Origin: a virus | Virus record (IMG/VR): IMGVR_UViG_3300027740_000001 | Span: 1 to 63,976 of that record | Reading direction: 5' to 3' (one strand) | Length of the DNA stretch: 63,976 nt | Shown here: in pieces, positions 9,058 to 63,976 of the stretch | Layout of the letters: the number at the start of each line of letters is the position of its first letter | Position numbering within the stretch: the stretch's first letter is position 1 | The notes under the pieces: generated by a model | What the model saw: the letters and a program-made list of their open reading frames with translations, nothing else | Databases searched by the model: none | What the model was told of the DNA's origin: nothing | Translations under genes and position numbers: made by a program

Positions 9058-9319
9058 GTACCTCCGACATAATCTTTCTTGCCATCACAGAATCTCTACC
9101 ACCAAGTTCTGTCCATCTATCAGATATTAACTTAATTATTCCAACGCCACCTTGTGGTTCCTCAACGTAAACCTTGGTCTTCTTGTCTTTTACAAATATC
9201 GGTAATGGCAACAACAGAAACCACCGGTAGATTTGCTCACGATCTGCATGTTTAATTTGATCTGGAGTTGGGTAATTCAATTGCAACTTAAGCTTCCATG
9301 TTCTTTCTTGTCTATCCAT
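9038..9319 (-). CDS. Hypothetical protein (93 aa)
   Basis: ORF in a co-directional string. Its 5' end overlaps the tail of the frameshifted HNH-like reading frame. Confidence 0.5.
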   Translation of the reverse strand: MDRQERTWKLKLQLNYPTPDQIKHADREQIYRWFLLLPLPIFVKDKKTKVYVEEPQGGVGIIKLISDRWTELGGRDSVMARKIMSEVHGDTPA

Positions 9320-16029: not shown

Positions 16030-16434
16030 ATGGGATACGAAAGCTGTGCATCACTATATAGTTCATTATTCAGTCCGGAGCTAAAGCGTATCTTTCGTGA
16101 GAACAATCTCATGATCCCATACATCCTTGAATTCCTCGAAAGCGATGACGTTGTGTGCGAAGATAATACCTGTATACACCACGTGTTCAATGAGTGTATG
16201 GAGTTCGGTTCGACCAACACGGGTGATGTTGTACGTGTAGAAACCGATTGGGTTAAGCAATGTCACGGATGCATGTGCTTAATGGATCTTGTTGATCACA
16301 ACCTATCACTTCAGGACATAGCCGATGCGATGGGTGTTAGCAGGGAGGCAATTCGTAAACATGAATTTTCTGCATCTTCAAAAATACGTGGTAAGTTTAG
16401 TTACAAAGGTGGTGATGAAATAGTGCGGCGATAG
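16030..16434 (+). CDS. DNA-binding protein with C-terminal sigma70 region-4/LuxR-like HTH
   Basis: The C-terminal segment LSLQDIADAMGVSREAIRKHEFSASSKIR has an HTH pattern. The start codon is uncertain. Confidence 0.55.
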   Translation: MGYESCASLYSSLFSPELKRIFRENNLMIPYILEFLESDDVVCEDNTCIHHVFNECMEFGSTNTGDVVRVETDWVKQCHGCMCLMDLVDHNLSLQDIADAMGVSREAIRKHEFSASSKIRGKFSYKGGDEIVRR

Positions 16435-19857: not shown

Positions 19858-20049
19858 GTGAGCAAGTGTATTAACTGCACTGAGTGTAGAACTGTTTATG
19901 GAAATCGTAACATTACTACATGTCGTGCTAACGTTTTTCACAAAATTGCAATAGATCACCCGTTTCTAAGCGTTGAGCGAAAGTGCGTATATTTTGAGGA
20001 AGAAGGTGTAAATGATAACTCTCCTGGAGATAAAAAATCAAATAGGTAA
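19858..20049 (+). CDS. Small Cys-rich protein (63 aa)
   Basis: GTG start lies 5 nt after AGGAGG. It contains CINCTEC...C. Confidence 0.5.
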   Translation: MSKCINCTECRTVYGNRNITTCRANVFHKIAIDHPFLSVERKCVYFEEEGVNDNSPGDKKSNR

Positions 20050-21169
20050 GTACCTTTACCTTACTGATACAGATGTTGTTGACGTTGTGATGGCCTTTGT
20101 TGTTGCGAATAGGATACCGGGGGATTCGATCAGCCTTTACATTGTTGGTCCATCCTCTTCGGCCAAGACAGAGATGATCGAGTGTATATCGAAAAACCCT
20201 CACGTCGAGGAGATATCGATCATCACACCACACGCGTTGATATCTGGCTATAAGGAAAAGGCGAAGGACAATGAAGATCACTCCGTATTAACCAGGCTTC
20301 AGAAAGAAGATAGAAATATCCTTGCGTTCAAGGACTTCACCACCATTATATCCATGCGCCGAGAGGATAGATCCCAATTCATGTCCCACCTTCGTGAGAT
20401 GGCTGACGGAAAGATATCTGGACTATATGGTAATAGGCCACCAATACGGCTGAAGGCTAAGTTTGGAGTGATTGCAGCTTGCACAAACGCAATCGACGAA
20501 TTTGTCGCTGGTAATGCCATCCTTGGGGAAAGGTTCCTAAAATACCGAATTTTGGCAGAGATGACAGGTGAGATAGCCCGTGCCGCAGTCAAACATATTA
20601 CAGATAAAGATGCACTCAGGGATGAAACATCCAGCCTGGTAAAGATATTCCTGGATCAATTTGAAGTAATGTTTCAGACAATTCCGGAAATAGACGATGC
20701 ATGTGAGCATAAGATTATCGATCTGTGCATACTTGGCGCTCACCTTCGAAGTCCCATCATACGTGACGAGAAGGGCATTCAGGTGAGCGAAGTTGACCAC
20801 GAGGGTCCAGGTAGACTGGTATCATCGGTAGCGAAGCTTGCCAGGTCTCTGGCTATTGTAAGGGGGATGGAATTCGCGGATCTATCTCTATACCCAATTC
20901 TTAAGAAGATCGTAAAGGATACAATGCCACCATACCGCTTAAGGATCGTTGAAATGATGTATGAGGCTGGTGGTGTCATTTGCGAGACCGACATCTGCAA
21001 GCGTTTGAATATTAGCCGACCAACCGTTTCAAGATACTGCTCTGACCTTGCATCCATAAGTTTCTGCAAGAGAGATCCAACACCAAGGCAGAAAACTTAT
21101 ATTTCATTAACGGATAGGTATATTACATTAATCGAGAATAGCGAAATTTTTGTTATTGACAAGATTTAG
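20012..21169 (+). CDS. P-loop NTPase with C-terminal winged-HTH (replication initiator/helicase-loader candidate)
   Basis: Walker A is IVGPSSSAKTE and a Walker B-like ILAFKDF is present. The C-terminal ICKRLNISRPTVSRYCSDL has an HTH pattern. A palindromic AT-rich region follows immediately. Confidence 0.6.
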   Translation: MITLLEIKNQIGKYLYLTDTDVVDVVMAFVVANRIPGDSISLYIVGPSSSAKTEMIECISKNPHVEEISIITPHALISGYKEKAKDNEDHSVLTRLQKEDRNILAFKDFTTIISMRREDRSQFMSHLREMADGKISGLYGNRPPIRLKAKFGVIAACTNAIDEFVAGNAILGERFLKYRILAEMTGEIARAAVKHITDKDALRDETSSLVKIFLDQFEVMFQTIPEIDDACEHKIIDLCILGAHLRSPIIRDEKGIQVSEVDHEGPGRLVSSVAKLARSLAIVRGMEFADLSLYPILKKIVKDTMPPYRLRIVEMMYEAGGVICETDICKRLNISRPTVSRYCSDLASISFCKRDPTPRQKTYISLTDRYITLIENSEIFVIDKI

Positions 21170-21715: not shown

Positions 21716-22333
21716 ATGGAAGACTATTTAAGTGGACATAAGAAATGTGGTATTGAGGTTGGTGATCTGGTAAGGATAACAAGAAAGGCAGAATCTGGAG
21801 AGGGGGGATGGGGTAACTTTTGGGTGGGCTTCCTGGATGATATTGTTGGTAAGTATGGAACGGTTAGAAGTGACGATGGCGTCAAGGGATTTGATGTGTG
21901 TACCGAACTGGGATCATTTGATTTTCCATACTTCATACTGGAGAAGATAACCGGTGCCGAACCGGTACCATCACCAAGCGATCACGCCAGTAAATATACT
22001 CTCAAGGACTCCGGTGAACGCGAGACATTCGAAAGTGGTATGGTTCGAGACACGAGAGTGGGAAAGGGCAGATTTGACCTGATCAGCCCCATAGCGCTTC
22101 GTAGGTTGGCACTCATTTACGAGGCTGGCGCGATCAAATATGACTCAAGGAACTGGGAGAAGGGTGCCCCGATTAGCCGCTTCATAGATTCTGCGTTGAG
22201 GCATATAAACCAGTTTAAGGAGGGCAAGAGGGATGAGGATCACATCGCCCAGGCCTGCTGGAATCTATTCTGTGTACTGCACTTTGATGAAGCGAGACCT
22301 GACCTTAACGATCTACCGGTTTACGATATATAA
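21716..22333 (+). CDS. Two-domain protein; C-terminal dATP/dGTP diphosphohydrolase (MazZ-like, DUF5664/PF18909-like) domain
   Basis: RFDLISPIALRRLALIYEAGAIKYDSRNWEKG...ALRH...ED....DHIAQACWNLFC matches the remembered signature of that domain. The N-terminal about 90 aa is a separate small beta-rich domain. Confidence 0.65.
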   Translation: MEDYLSGHKKCGIEVGDLVRITRKAESGEGGWGNFWVGFLDDIVGKYGTVRSDDGVKGFDVCTELGSFDFPYFILEKITGAEPVPSPSDHASKYTLKDSGERETFESGMVRDTRVGKGRFDLISPIALRRLALIYEAGAIKYDSRNWEKGAPISRFIDSALRHINQFKEGKRDEDHIAQACWNLFCVLHFDEARPDLNDLPVYDI

Positions 22334-22891: not shown

Positions 22892-23080
22892 ATGAACGAA
22901 AAGAAAGCCAAGCGACTACGCAGGGAATTGTTCACTCATGATCAATGGTTGTACGAGAAGGCTAACGTTAAGTATGTGCACGCCATAGATAACCGTGACA
23001 ACGAACTTCCGTTTATCATTCGTACATCTGCCATGCTGAACAAGTATCGTGAGAATAAGAGATTGAGCTATGGACATTAA
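22892..23080 (+). CDS. Small basic protein (62 aa)
   Basis: ORF in a co-directional string that overlaps the integrase start. Confidence 0.5.
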   Translation: MNEKKAKRLRRELFTHDQWLYEKANVKYVHAIDNRDNELPFIIRTSAMLNKYRENKRLSYGH

Positions 23081-23867
23081 GGCTATCGTTGATCGATACA
23101 TTCTTGAACTCCAAAAGAAGAACCCGGCTACTCTGTCCCAGTTATATAGATTCATTCTATTCTTTTCTGATATGGACACGGTATCCAAGGAAGATGTAAT
23201 GGACTACATTATAGCCAGGAGACCAGCGGTCAAGCCGTCTACCCTTAACCGTGAGATCACAATTATGAAGCAATTGTTCAGGTGGATGTTAGTACGTGGA
23301 TACATCGACAAAGATCCGTCCGTAGGCATAAAGTACGAGTCCGGGGTGGCTAAGAGGGTGCGGCATATCACAACAGAAGAGGAAGGCCGGCTTATATCAG
23401 AATGCCCTGCCTGGTTACAGCCGATCATCCAATTTGCCACCTCGACCGGTATGAGACGTGGGGAGATCGTGGGTCTGCTGAAGTCAGACGTGAACCTGAA
23501 TGATAAGACGGCTACGATCAGAACATCGAAAAACGGGGAACCGCGGGTTATACCGTTGACGAAGCGCGCCCTCGATGCTGTTGCGGCTACCATCTCGAAG
23601 GGAGATAGGTTGTTCGGGGGTAAGAATGGGGAACCGATTGTGATGTCGAACCTGGAGTACAATATTAGGTCTGCAGCTAATCGTGCAGGAATACATGATC
23701 TACACTTCCACGATATGCGCCATACGTTTGCAACTCGGCTGGTTCGTGCCGGGGTTGATCTATATGCAGTGCAATGCTTGTTGGGACATAAAGGACCAGC
23801 CATGACACAGAGATATAGCCATCATGACATAGGATCGCTGAGGAAGGCTACGGAGAGCGTTATGTGA
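23070..23867 (+). CDS. int: Tyrosine recombinase/integrase, short XerC/D-like form
   Basis: The catalytic signature is present: GMRRGE (Arg I), HFHDMRHTFAT (H-x-x-R), LLGH, and RYSH (Tyr). At 265 aa it has no long N-terminal arm-binding domain. Confidence 0.85.
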   Translation: MDIKAIVDRYILELQKKNPATLSQLYRFILFFSDMDTVSKEDVMDYIIARRPAVKPSTLNREITIMKQLFRWMLVRGYIDKDPSVGIKYESGVAKRVRHITTEEEGRLISECPAWLQPIIQFATSTGMRRGEIVGLLKSDVNLNDKTATIRTSKNGEPRVIPLTKRALDAVAATISKGDRLFGGKNGEPIVMSNLEYNIRSAANRAGIHDLHFHDMRHTFATRLVRAGVDLYAVQCLLGHKGPAMTQRYSHHDIGSLRKATESVM

Positions 23868-32814: not shown

Positions 32815-32886
32815 TGTGTATTACCTCCCCTTACCATTATTATGTTTATATCACCTTCAATAATAGATTATTTTTTCAATAATAGA

Positions 32887-34510: not shown

Positions 34511-34669
34511 CTACCCGAAAGCGATCTCACTATCACTATCAACCCCGGTTATAGCCGTGGTATCACGTGACGGAATCAACACAAACACGCATTGATTCTC
34601 TTTCGGGTTCAGACGTTTAAACAATGAATATCCGATACCGTTTACCCTAAAGTCTTTTAGCCAAATCAT
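34511..34669 (-). CDS. First gene of the leftward arm, 52-aa protein
   Basis: Manually found ORF: ATG at 34669 lies 5 nt after GGAGGG. The product is MIWLKDFRVNGIGYSLFKRLNPKENQCVFVLIPSRD... Confidence 0.45.
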   Translation of the reverse strand: MIWLKDFRVNGIGYSLFKRLNPKENQCVFVLIPSRDTTAITGVDSDSEIAFG

Positions 34670-34980
34670 AATGCCCTCCGTTTACCCTGTTAAAGGTTTA
34701 ATTCCGTTAAGGTTAACCCCTATGATGCACATGCCATGCCAACATTCAGCCAACATGCCAACTATTTTGAAAAAATCGTATAACACAAATAATATCATGT
34801 ATTTATATGACTTACTGGCATATTATAGGCATATCATACGAACATCTATCTATAACCACAGTGCCAAATAACGTCACATCGCTTGTGAAAAACTATAATA
34901 ACCCACACCCAACTCGTTGATATAACTCACCGTTACCCAGGTGACAATTTACGCATACAAAATGCCAAAAAATGTCACTA

Positions 34981-35038
34981 ATTATAACAATATGTTATGA
35001 CAAAATGTCCGGATTATAACATACTGTTGTGAAATGTC
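34981..35038. repeat. Two tandem about 27-bp operator-like units, each with a short inverted repeat
   Basis: The units are ATTATAACAATATGTTATGACAAAATGTC and ATTATAACATACTGTTGTGAAATGTC. ATAAC and GTTAT form the inner palindrome. AAATGTC also occurs at 34970. Confidence 0.7.
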
Positions 35039-35120
35039 GGTTCGGGATACCATACTAAAACAGTCAAGAATGTAGGAATTGGGTAGAATTGCCAAATACG
35101 GCAATTGGGGTGTTGAGAAA

Positions 35121-35210
35121 TTCAACGGTATGGTGAGAAACTCATCACTTTTCACCAGAGTGGTGAACTCTTCACCACTTTTCACCACTCTTCACCATAG
35201 TTCATCACTC
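35121..35210. repeat. Iteron-like array: nine phased decamers (7 direct TTCAyCAnnn, 2 inverted TGGTGA)
   Basis: Exact 10-bp register: TGGTGAGAAA CTCATCACTT TTCACCAGAG TGGTGAACTC TTCACCACTT TTCACCACTC TTCACCATAG TTCATCACTC TTCATCACTT. Confidence 0.85.
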
Positions 35211-35341
35211 TTCATCACTTCCGGGTACCTTCATATTCCCTATCATTATAGTATATGCCGTTAATTGTGACCCTTCATGGCCAATTCTGGGGATAACTTG
35301 CACTTCATTACATATGAAGTAGCACTTTTGTGATATTTTGG

Positions 35342-35370
35342 TTGACATTCAAGATATGGTATGGTATAGT
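35342..35370 (+). promoter_or_regulatory. Sigma70-type promoter (TTGACA-17-TATAGT, TGn extended -10) for the long rightward block
   Basis: TTGACA is at 35342..35347 and TATAGT at 35365..35370, preceded by tgg. The inverted repeat ACTTCAT/ATGAAGT (35302..35320) lies just upstream. Confidence 0.7.
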
Positions 35371-35383
35371 CTATCCCATAATA

Positions 35384-35474
35384 GGTCGGGACCCGGAGGG
35401 GCAGTCAGGAAGTGCCCCCTTAATATAAGCCGATGTCGATCGTAGATTCTCTCCCTCGCTCCCGGGTCCTGGCC
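35384..35474 (+). ncRNA. Structured leader RNA candidate (long closing helix plus competing inner hairpins)
   Basis: 35384..35394 pairs with 35464..35474 (11 bp including G-U). GAGGG (35396..35400) can pair with either CCCTC (35453..35457) or, within the GGGGCA/TGCCCC hairpin (35398..35418), with its 3' arm. It lies between the predicted TSS (about 35377) and the ATG at 35521. Confidence 0.45.
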
Positions 35475-35520
35475 ACCCTACAATTTCACGTTTTACTGTA
35501 ATTTCACACAGGAGGTAGAT

Positions 35521-62976: not shown

Positions 62977-63976
62977 ATGCCTAACGGAATAGTTAATAAC
63001 GAAGAAGAAAAGAAACCATACATGGAGGAATATGCTAAGCGAGCTACCGAGGTTCAAAGAGAACCTGGCATAATAACTGATATTGCTCGAAAAGTAATTC
63101 ATCCAGCATATCATGGGTCACTCGGTATTCCTAAGATTGTCCATGACCAGGCTCGCAATACATCCGATAGGTATGTTCAAGATCGAATACAACAAGAACA
63201 TAACCTTCTGTATCAACCCATTCAACCAACACCCATTGGTACCCCTGCACCAGCAACAACAACACAAGCTCCCACCCCGGTTGTTAGTGCCCCAACCCAA
63301 ACCGGTGAAAGCTATACAGACATCATGTCTAAGCAATGGGAAGATTACGTAGCTGGTGGTGGTGGTGTAATGCGTTGGCCGAGCGGTGAGACTTCCTTTT
63401 TAAGTCCAACAAAAATGAGGGAAGCAAGCGAAGACCTGGATAGGCTTGAACTTGAAAAACAGCTTGGAGTAACACCAAGAACTGGAATGGCTGAATATGA
63501 GGCTGGTGCAACGAGAATGCGTGAACGTAGTGCTATGGAGGGTATCGTTTCTGGGCTTCCAAGAAAAACCAGGGCTGGTGTGATCGCTGAGTCATTAAAA
63601 TCACGAGGTGACATTGAACGTACCAGAATAGGTGCTATCTCAGAACAGGAAAAAGCCAAGTCCGTATCTCAGGCTAAAATATATGAATCAGCCATTAAGT
63701 CCCAGGCAGACTGGGCAAAACTTGGTATTTCGGCAGATGATGTAAGATCGAAACAGCAATATAGGAAGGCACAAGTTGATGATCTGATGACACGTACCGG
63801 ATTGCTCGAACCAATGAAGCTTCAACTTGCACAGGCAAAAACAGGTATGGAGTCAAGGAAGATCCAGCGAGATTTTGCAATGCAGGCCCTTGACAAGGTT
63901 TTCGCTCCAAGACTTAAGGAATATCAAGACTCGGTAATGAGTGGCATGCCAAGAACACCAGAACAACAGGTACAGT
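62977..63976 (+). CDS. 5' part of the wrap-around CDS (continues at 1..291 after collapsing the overlap)
   Basis: The ATG at 62977 follows GAGAGG. I translated the whole stretch and found no stop before the window end. It was absent from the ORF track because it has no in-window stop. Confidence 0.8.
   Translation, partial: MPNGIVNNEEEKKPYMEEYAKRATEVQREPGIITDIARKVIHPAYHGSLGIPKIVHDQARNTSDRYVQDRIQQEHNLLYQPIQPTPIGTPAPATTTQAPTPVVSAPTQTGESYTDIMSKQWEDYVAGGGGVMRWPSGETSFLSPTKMREASEDLDRLELEKQLGVTPRTGMAEYEAGATRMRERSAMEGIVSGLPRKTRAGVIAESLKSRGDIERTRIGAISEQEKAKSVSQAKIYESAIKSQADWAKLGISADDVRSKQQYRKAQVDDLMTRTGLLEPMKLQLAQAKTGMESRKIQRDFAMQALDKVFAPRLKEYQDSVMSGMPRTPEQQVQ
63850..63976. repeat. Right copy of the exact 127-bp terminal overlap
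   Basis: It is identical to 1..127. Confidence 0.95.

Follow-up and report, generated by a model that had tools for sequence, protein, structure and literature searches.

The window analysed here is the complete 63,976-bp virus record IMGVR_UViG_3300027740_000001 of IMG/VR. Between its first leftward gene and the promoter of its rightward gene block lies a repeat-dense gap (34670-35341), which is a real, conserved and composite control hub; the repeats in it are real and selected for. The initial annotation had listed the repeat families as independent, and had seen in the gap a possible origin or operator region. The families are not equivalent and belong to separate functional parts: the middle third may still be an origin or an operator, whereas the left third and the right end are read as promoter parts. 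We give about an even chance to the composite reading, in which the hub would join a sigma-54-type promoter for the leftward genes, a sigma-70 promoter for the rightward genes and, between the two, a replication origin formed by an array of phased decamers. The observations comprise the motifs together with their conservation and spacing rules, as well as the fold of a candidate protein and the context of its gene; from these we infer sigma-54 dependence, the pairing of proteins with sites and origin function.

The rightward gene block extends from 35.5 kb through the genes for the terminase, the portal and a 2563-aa protein to 8 kb. It is followed by a leftward block at 8-13 kb, by a rightward replication and recombination block at 13-24 kb, whose last gene encodes a 265-aa tyrosine integrase, and by the leftward arm of about 40 small genes (24-34.7 kb). 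The gap studied separates this arm from the rightward block. The 127-nt terminal repeat of the record (1-127 = 63850-63976) has a common assembler k-mer length, which points to a circular assembly and does not indicate the physical ends.

No DNA similarity was found to 50,697 deposited phages (near and distant search modes), and a prophage search in 185,579 species genomes found none. Relatives of the terminase exist and their contigs stop short of the hub. A search of IMG/VR with the DUF7178 protein, encoded two genes into the leftward arm, as the sole query gave no relative. Relatives of this protein are known at 51-87% identity, and the relatives' contigs gave about 14 related gaps, which represent roughly nine independent lineages. 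All these gaps are gene-free, lie at the same place between divergent genes and are 700-1200 bp long. Their sequence is mostly unalignable between clades, so that motifs found in common are informative. The first leftward gene has homologues in the contigs L081, L083 and L097, and the first rightward genes vary between clades. L081, the 87% relative, was used for comparison with the window; the window clade consists of the window, L081 and the near-identical L082 and L100.

On re-reading of the sequence the coordinates of all repeats listed in the initial annotation proved exact: the ATGCCA/GCCAACAT copies at 34731-34764, AAATGTC at 34970, 35003 and 35032, the ATAAC-5-GTTAT units within 34981-35038, and the palindromes AATTGCC-6-GGCAATT (35087-35106) and ACTTCAT-5-ATGAAGT (35302-35320). 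Some descriptions had to be corrected. There are ten decamers and not nine (35121-35220; the unit at 35211 had been overlooked), the ATAAC units are spaced by 32 bp instead of about 27 bp, and the last palindrome, thought to abut the -35 box, ends 21 bp short of it. The gap had rightly been called non-coding: in the 87% relative its open reading frames gain stop codons or lose the start codon, and they were rejected as coding on this ground. Rfam and tRNA scans of the hub revealed nothing. The suggested comparison with relatives separated the parts of the gap. Its ends are widely conserved; the TTCAYCA array and the AATTGCC-6-GGCAATT palindrome in its middle were found only in the window clade.

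The sigma-54-type element and its upstream sites

The left third of the gap contains the following features, listed from the first leftward gene towards the array.

34511-34669, minus strand: first leftward gene, 52 aa (MIWLKD...), with the ribosome binding site GGAGG upstream
34726-34741, minus strand: sigma-54-type -24/-12 element, 5'-TGGCATGGCATGTGCA-3', a pattern match with GG at 34740-34739 and GC at 34728-34727
34742-34764, minus strand: extra TTGGCAT/TTGGCT copies (GCCAACAT repeats) without a -12 partner, in the window clade only
34793-34805, plus strand: integration host factor (IHF)-like site TATCATGTATTTA, with one mismatch to WATCAANNNNTTR
34861-34877: candidate activator site upstream of the leftward promoter (distance about 120 bp), formed by the dyad GTGCCAAATAACGTCAC and kept in L081
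34940-34954: GGTGACAATTTACGC motif, common to L081 and L083, recurring upstream of the second sigma-54-type promoter of L081
34964-35040: three AAATGTC half-sites and two 32-bp units, with the exact dyad GACAAAATGTC at 34999-35009
35071-35082, plus strand: TGTAGGAATTGG, a copy of GGTAGGAATTGA, between the dyads and the clade-specific arrays

The motif TGGCAT-N5-(T/G)TGC(A/T) was present on the arm strand at the homologous spot in 14 of the 14 related loci, and its distance to the first leftward start codon was 45-99 nt in every one of them. The GG and GC doublets are exactly ten bases apart, matching TGGCAC-N5-TTGCW, and the chance expectation for GGCAT-N5-KTGC is about 0.18 per 12-kb locus. 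When the window was compared with L081, the 16-nt core was 100% identical, whereas the neighbouring leader was 79% identical and contained a 27-bp insertion or deletion. A conserved leftward sigma-70 promoter was not found among the related loci. Judged by these sequence features the promoter of the leftward arm is very probably of the sigma-54 type. Transcription would start near 34715 and produce a leader of about 46 nt. The ATGCCA repeats of the initial annotation are the -24 element itself together with clade-specific extra copies.

The element has the same -24 GG and -12 GC as bacterial sigma-54 promoters such as glnAp2, with its NtrC sites, and the Pseudomonas putida promoter Pu, with XylR and IHF. 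In a layout that resembles those systems, an A+T-rich IHF-like site is located between the promoter and several dyads, putative activator sites, lying 120-300 bp upstream. The tract around the IHF-like site has the highest A+T content of the gap (23% G+C), and comparable sites were found 41-64 bp upstream of the -24 element in five of the nine independent lineages. Farther upstream there is another A+T-rich tract (34950-35040, 27-28% G+C). AAATGTC occurs here in three copies in 63 bp, as compared with 0.19 per kb genome-wide. By their sequence the AAATGTC copies are half-sites of GACA-N3-TGTC dyads, and GACA-N3-5-TGTC dyads were detected upstream of the leftward promoter in 11 of the 14 hubs. 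Besides the exact dyad at 34999-35009, the window has related sites at 34861-34877, 34940-34954, 34964-34978 and 35027-35038. The sequence GGTAGGAATTGA occurs in one orientation only, in five independent clades (the window and the hubs of L089, L096, L099, L105, L110 and L111).

In the proposed mechanism the sigma-54-type promoter would drive the leftward arm of about 40 miniproteins (10.6 kb). The IHF-like site would bend the DNA, and the dyads of the GACA-N3-TGTC or GTGAC...GTCAC type (34861-35040) would act as an enhancer. The setting differs from that of the bacterial promoters in that the element is in a phage, lies in front of a 10.6-kb arm of miniproteins and has no phage-encoded activator: neither the sigma-54 activator domain PF00158 nor a Fis-type helix-turn-helix (HTH_8, PF02954) was found in the phage proteins. 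A phage without its own sigma-54 activator implies an activator supplied by the host, and the leftward arm would stay silent until a host enhancer-binding ATPase becomes active. No paper describing natural sigma-54 promoters in phages was found in the literature searched.

The minus strand of both ATAAC-5-GTTAT units (34989-34981 and 35021-35013) reads TGTTATAAT, a perfect extended -10 motif, and the corresponding -35 positions overlap AAATGTC half-sites. These motifs may be leftward sigma-70 promoters specific to the window clade.

A second, internal sigma-54-type promoter, TGGCATTGGAATTGCA, is present in the leftward arm of L081 (L081:8890-9025), with GTGAC motifs 50-110 bp upstream. The counterpart of this region in the window (32815-32886) has the direct repeat AATAATCTATTATTGAA in two copies instead.

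The phased array and a candidate binding protein

The middle of the gap contains two features, and a third, distant one is considered together with them.

35087-35106: perfect 7-6-7 palindrome AATTGCCAAATACGGCAATT (AATTGCC-6-GGCAATT), unique in the genome
35121-35220, plus strand: ten decamers with the heptamer TTCAYCA in exact 10-bp register, eight direct (two of them degenerate) and two inverted
20012-21169, plus strand: gene for a 385-aa AAA+ ATPase, candidate array-binding protein, with the Walker A motif GPSSSAKT and a C-terminal winged helix (residues about 291-385)

Exact direct TTCAYCA units begin at 35151, 35171, 35181, 35191, 35201 and 35211, and an exact inverted unit, TGGTGAA, begins at 35161. 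The units at 35121 (TTCAACG), 35131 (TGGTGAG, inverted) and 35141 (CTCATCA) are degenerate. In this region one 7-mer occurs in five exact copies in 10-bp phase; in 500 dinucleotide shuffles of the region the mean was 2.0 and the maximum 3. Tandem Repeats Finder also reported a 10-bp array (35167-35219). The array is the sole cluster of the heptamer in the 64-kb genome, and its own base composition is average (43% G+C). Its conserved core (35151-35220) is 90% identical to that of L081, as compared with 51-55% for the flanks, and three of the seven changes in the core fall on the degenerate Y of the heptamer. In L081 the central palindrome is kept with 100% identity, and the sequence on either side of it with 55-85%. 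A scan of IMG/VR for TTCACCACTNTTCACCA gave 69 matches, mostly single and scattered, which is about the number estimated for chance. At the equivalent place L096 carries TAGCTAT repeats with 11-bp spacing, and L086 and L098 carry very A+T-rich repeats. Arrays that evolve fast and are specific to a clade imply a binding protein that is specific to the clade as well.

The initial annotation saw no obvious binding protein. A Pfam scan of the 127 open reading frames and targeted scans have since pointed to a protein of the replication block (20012-21169), which matches AAA weakly and carries a winged helix of the ArsR/MarR type at its C terminus. Its AlphaFold model, built with 52 homologues, had a predicted local distance difference test score (pLDDT) of 89.6, and the top 50 Foldseek matches were all subunits of MCM helicases, which combine an AAA+ core with a winged helix (E down to 3e-9). 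Longer homologues carry an additional Toprim_2, PriCT_1 or Prim-Pol domain by fusion, and in an integrated element one homologue is encoded directly after a Prim-Pol/PriCT_1 gene. For the ATPase part of the family no curated Pfam or PHROG model was found. Between lineages the winged helix is 37-56% identical and the ATPase 47-69%; the predicted recognition helix is only 31-46% identical. The faster divergence of the winged helix parallels the clade-specific arrays. The protein is a candidate for the array binder.

Among annotated regions the array most resembles the ori of the satellite phage P4. The alpha protein of P4 binds octamers via a C-terminal winged helix that follows the helicase domain (PMC4234260, PMC2777425). 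In the deposited P4 record the ori is annotated in the intergenic region from which the early and late operons diverge. The type-1 octamers GGTGAACA/TGTTCACC are found there at 9310, 9320 and 9331 (minus strand), 9353 (plus strand), 9396 and 9406 (minus strand), and the same region contains three contiguous 10-bp type-2 repeats. Both regions are non-coding stretches of about 550-700 bp between divergent operons, and both have short repeats, of 8 bp in P4 and of 7 bp in the window, which are spaced by 10-11 bp and present in both orientations. The core TTCACC is common to the P4 octamers and the window array. The P4 region, like the window gap, also holds promoters and other phased repeats. The window array is more regular than that of P4, with its ten units in strict 10-bp register. 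The window candidate differs from alpha by having no primase domain, and its closest structures are MCM subunits and not superfamily 3 helicases. The likeness to P4 is an architectural analogy, from which membership in the alpha family does not follow. In phage-inducible chromosomal islands of the SaPI type, which have a Pri-Rep module, a helicase-type initiator pairs with a primase and recognises short iterons.

We tentatively favour a replication origin as the function of the TTCAYCA array, at somewhat less than an even chance on the sequence. In its favour are the P4 precedent, the candidate initiator, the outline of a covariation with clade, the A+T-rich tract not far from the array and the cumulative GC skew, which reaches a minimum at 34-36 kb. 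The decamers would then be origin iterons on which the AAA+/winged-helix initiator (20012-21169) assembles, in the manner of P4 alpha on the type-1 octamers. Melting would be aided either by the A+T-rich tract (34950-35040) or by transcription that starts at the flanking promoters.

A homologue of the candidate with 53% identity, P0036, is encoded on a 60.5-kb contig labelled 'Thermoplasmata archaeon', which is probably a phage contig binned into an archaeal metagenome-assembled genome. The protein encoded at 21716-22330 has a dATP/dGTP diphosphohydrolase domain at its N terminus (PF18909, E 2e-20). Members of the PF18909 family are linked to phages in which a canonical base is replaced.

The rightward promoter and its palindrome

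The right end of the gap and the adjoining leader contain the following features.

35302-35320: palindrome ACTTCAT-N5-ATGAAGT, centred at about -66 relative to the inferred start, 30.5 bp before the -35 box
35342-35370, plus strand: rightward promoter TTGACA-17-TATAGT with an extended -10 TG (11 of 12 matches)
35371-35520, plus strand: conserved structured leader GGGACCCGGAGGGGCAGTC..., the most widely conserved sequence among the relatives

A near-consensus equivalent of the rightward sigma-70 promoter was present in 12 of the 14 loci, with none found in L086 or L098. The 6-5-6 dyad upstream of it is perfect in 10 of 12 loci. The distance from the dyad centre to the -35 box falls into two classes, 30.5-32.5 or 40.5-41.5 bp, which are one helical turn apart; an insertion or deletion of exactly 11 bp separates the window from L081 here. 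One arm substitution relative to L081 is compensated on the other arm, and the symmetry is thereby kept. Taken at the sequence level, the two distance classes and the compensation are the signature of a dimeric regulator that faces RNA polymerase from about -66 or -77. In its T-N11-A form and its position the palindrome is reminiscent of LysR-type sites. A dimeric protein on the TTCAT-N5-ATGAA palindrome, which keeps to one face of the helix, would modulate the rightward sigma-70 promoter. The 31/42-bp spacing rule is a clean helical-phase constraint seen by comparison alone.

Two long contigs from one sample, L096 and L097, both end inside the conserved leader. Being common to co-occurring phages, the leader probably breaks assemblies. 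In L098 (2640-2760) the leader that follows the rightward promoter gives way abruptly, after about 100 nt, to Undibacterium-like DNA. The foreign part starts with a truncated msrP, followed by msrQ, cyaY and the gene of PBP1A (93% amino-acid identity); the junction is inside msrP, and there is no common core. This junction may be an assembly chimera or a product of illegitimate recombination. This possibly chimeric contig is the sole hint of a host, with Undibacterium as the candidate genus. Undibacterium genomes have rpoN and about 7-9 strongly matching genes for enhancer-binding activators each. Tested as a possible copy of a host site, the L098-type palindrome had no match in five Oxalobacteraceae genomes.

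Alternative explanations and significance

Several observations weigh against the composite of two promoters and an origin. In its sigma-54 part, it depends on a putative activator of a putative host, the hubs of L086, L096 and L098 carry other dyads in place of GACA-N3-TGTC, and the two leftward TGTTATAAT motifs could add sigma-70 input in the window clade. As to the origin, L096 is the only one of the other clades with an array of similar regularity. Between the array and the nearest A+T-rich tract there are 80-170 bp. The GC-skew minimum, which favours an origin, is confounded by the switch in gene orientation. In contrast to P4, the genome has no crr-like second cis region: no second cluster of at least three heptamers within 150 bp was found anywhere in it. 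The candidate initiator gene is 14 kb from the array, whereas in SaPI-type islands the origin is directly 3' of rep and flanks an A+T-rich core. No comparable arrays were found beside the genes of three remote homologues of the candidate, and its hhalign comparison with P4 alpha gave a weak 52-column local match around Walker A (probability 36%).

The leftward promoter and the array are each open to another interpretation. The TGGCAT-N5-TTGC motif might be read by a different factor, for instance the sigma-70-region-4-like protein encoded at 16030-16434, with the arm transcribed from sigma-70-type promoters. The phage does encode this 134-aa protein with a match to sigma-70 region 4, the window clade has its two leftward extended -10 motifs, and the search for a phage-encoded activator found none. 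We consider this explanation improbable, because the GG-N10-GC spacing and the flanking bases fit the sigma-54 consensus in all 14 loci, because the leftward sigma-70-like motifs are confined to the window clade, and because region 4 of sigma-70 reads -35-type elements and not a bipartite -24/-12 motif. If the sigma-54 assignment is accepted, the array itself could be a distal enhancer of the NtrC family for the leftward promoter. TTCACCA-GAG-TGGTGAA (35151-35167) has the 7-3-7 geometry of NtrC sites and is one symmetric change away from the NtrC consensus TGCACCA-N3-TGGTGCA; the sigma-54 promoter is about 430 bp away, with an IHF-like bend site. In L081, however, the left arm of this dyad is CACGCCA while the direct repeats are kept, a dimeric Fis-type helix-turn-helix needs inverted and not direct repeats, and the more widely conserved set of dyads sits closer to the promoter. 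An enhancer function of the array is thus quite unlikely. Less likely still is that the 20012-21169 protein is a novel enhancer-binding protein which, bound to the array, both opens the origin and remodels sigma-54 RNA polymerase about 430 bp away. On this view the protein belongs to the helix-2-insert branch of AAA+ proteins, which includes the sigma-54 activators. Such a dual role, if true, would couple expression of the miniprotein arm to replication without a canonical GAFTGA activator.

For the array, the main rival is a transcriptional or architectural operator that balances the divergent promoters by means of a small phage-encoded winged-helix or ribbon-helix-helix protein; it has to be taken more seriously, and we still hold it to be rather unlikely. 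The protein would polymerise head to tail on the direct repeats and bend the DNA, with P2 Cox, 186 Apl, proteins of the lambda Xis type and host regulators of the OmpR/PhoB type as models. Such proteins classically bind direct heptamers that follow each other at one helical turn, as illustrated by Cox boxes, Apl sites and pho/OmpR boxes. The P2 Cox boxes and the 186 Apl sites resemble the window array in consisting of at least six direct repeats with roughly helical spacing between the divergent promoters of a temperate phage. The position between two promoters fits this function, the integrase makes a developmental switch plausible, the first rightward genes vary between clades as the arrays do, and P4 itself has three contiguous 10-bp type-2 repeats in its intergenic region. 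But the Cox and Apl arrays overlap the repressed promoter and recur at attP, whereas the window array overlaps no conserved promoter: it ends 122 bp upstream of the rightward -35 box and is about 400-430 bp from the leftward promoter. No family of the Cox, Apl, Xis or ribbon-helix-helix type was detected among the 40 proteins nearest to the hub, and the first rightward protein (49 aa) is poor in basic residues. Very small proteins are often missed by profile searches. A literature search with the octamer string found no relevant paper. Immunity control, another suggestion of the initial annotation, is unlikely: no CI/Cro-type pair was found. A partition centromere, attP arm-type sites or a packaging site are the least probable functions, and these were rejected. 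Phased short repeats do occur in parC, parH and attP arms, a tyrosine integrase is encoded, and at about 100 nt beyond the rightward promoter three of the related contigs either break off or continue into foreign DNA. Yet no ParA, ParM or ParB family was found among the 127 open reading frames scanned, which also speaks against the partition control proposed earlier. The 265-aa integrase (23070-23867; catalytic domain at about residues 100-253) is too short to have an arm-binding domain and is encoded 11 kb away. The L098 junction falls within the leader, outside the array, and has no common core. The terminase genes are 8.5 kb away, and the 127-nt repeat, being an assembler k-mer, is silent on physical ends.

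If the composite reading holds, the genome would be split between an always-on sigma-70 promoter and a sigma-54 promoter fired by an ATP-dependent activator of the host, and the phage would read a host signalling pathway to time the expression of about 40 small proteins. The array offers a concrete, mutable candidate origin, together with a candidate initiator, whose AAA+/winged-helix family is uncurated and has links to primases in mobile elements. The two, if confirmed, would help to annotate origins in metagenomic phages.

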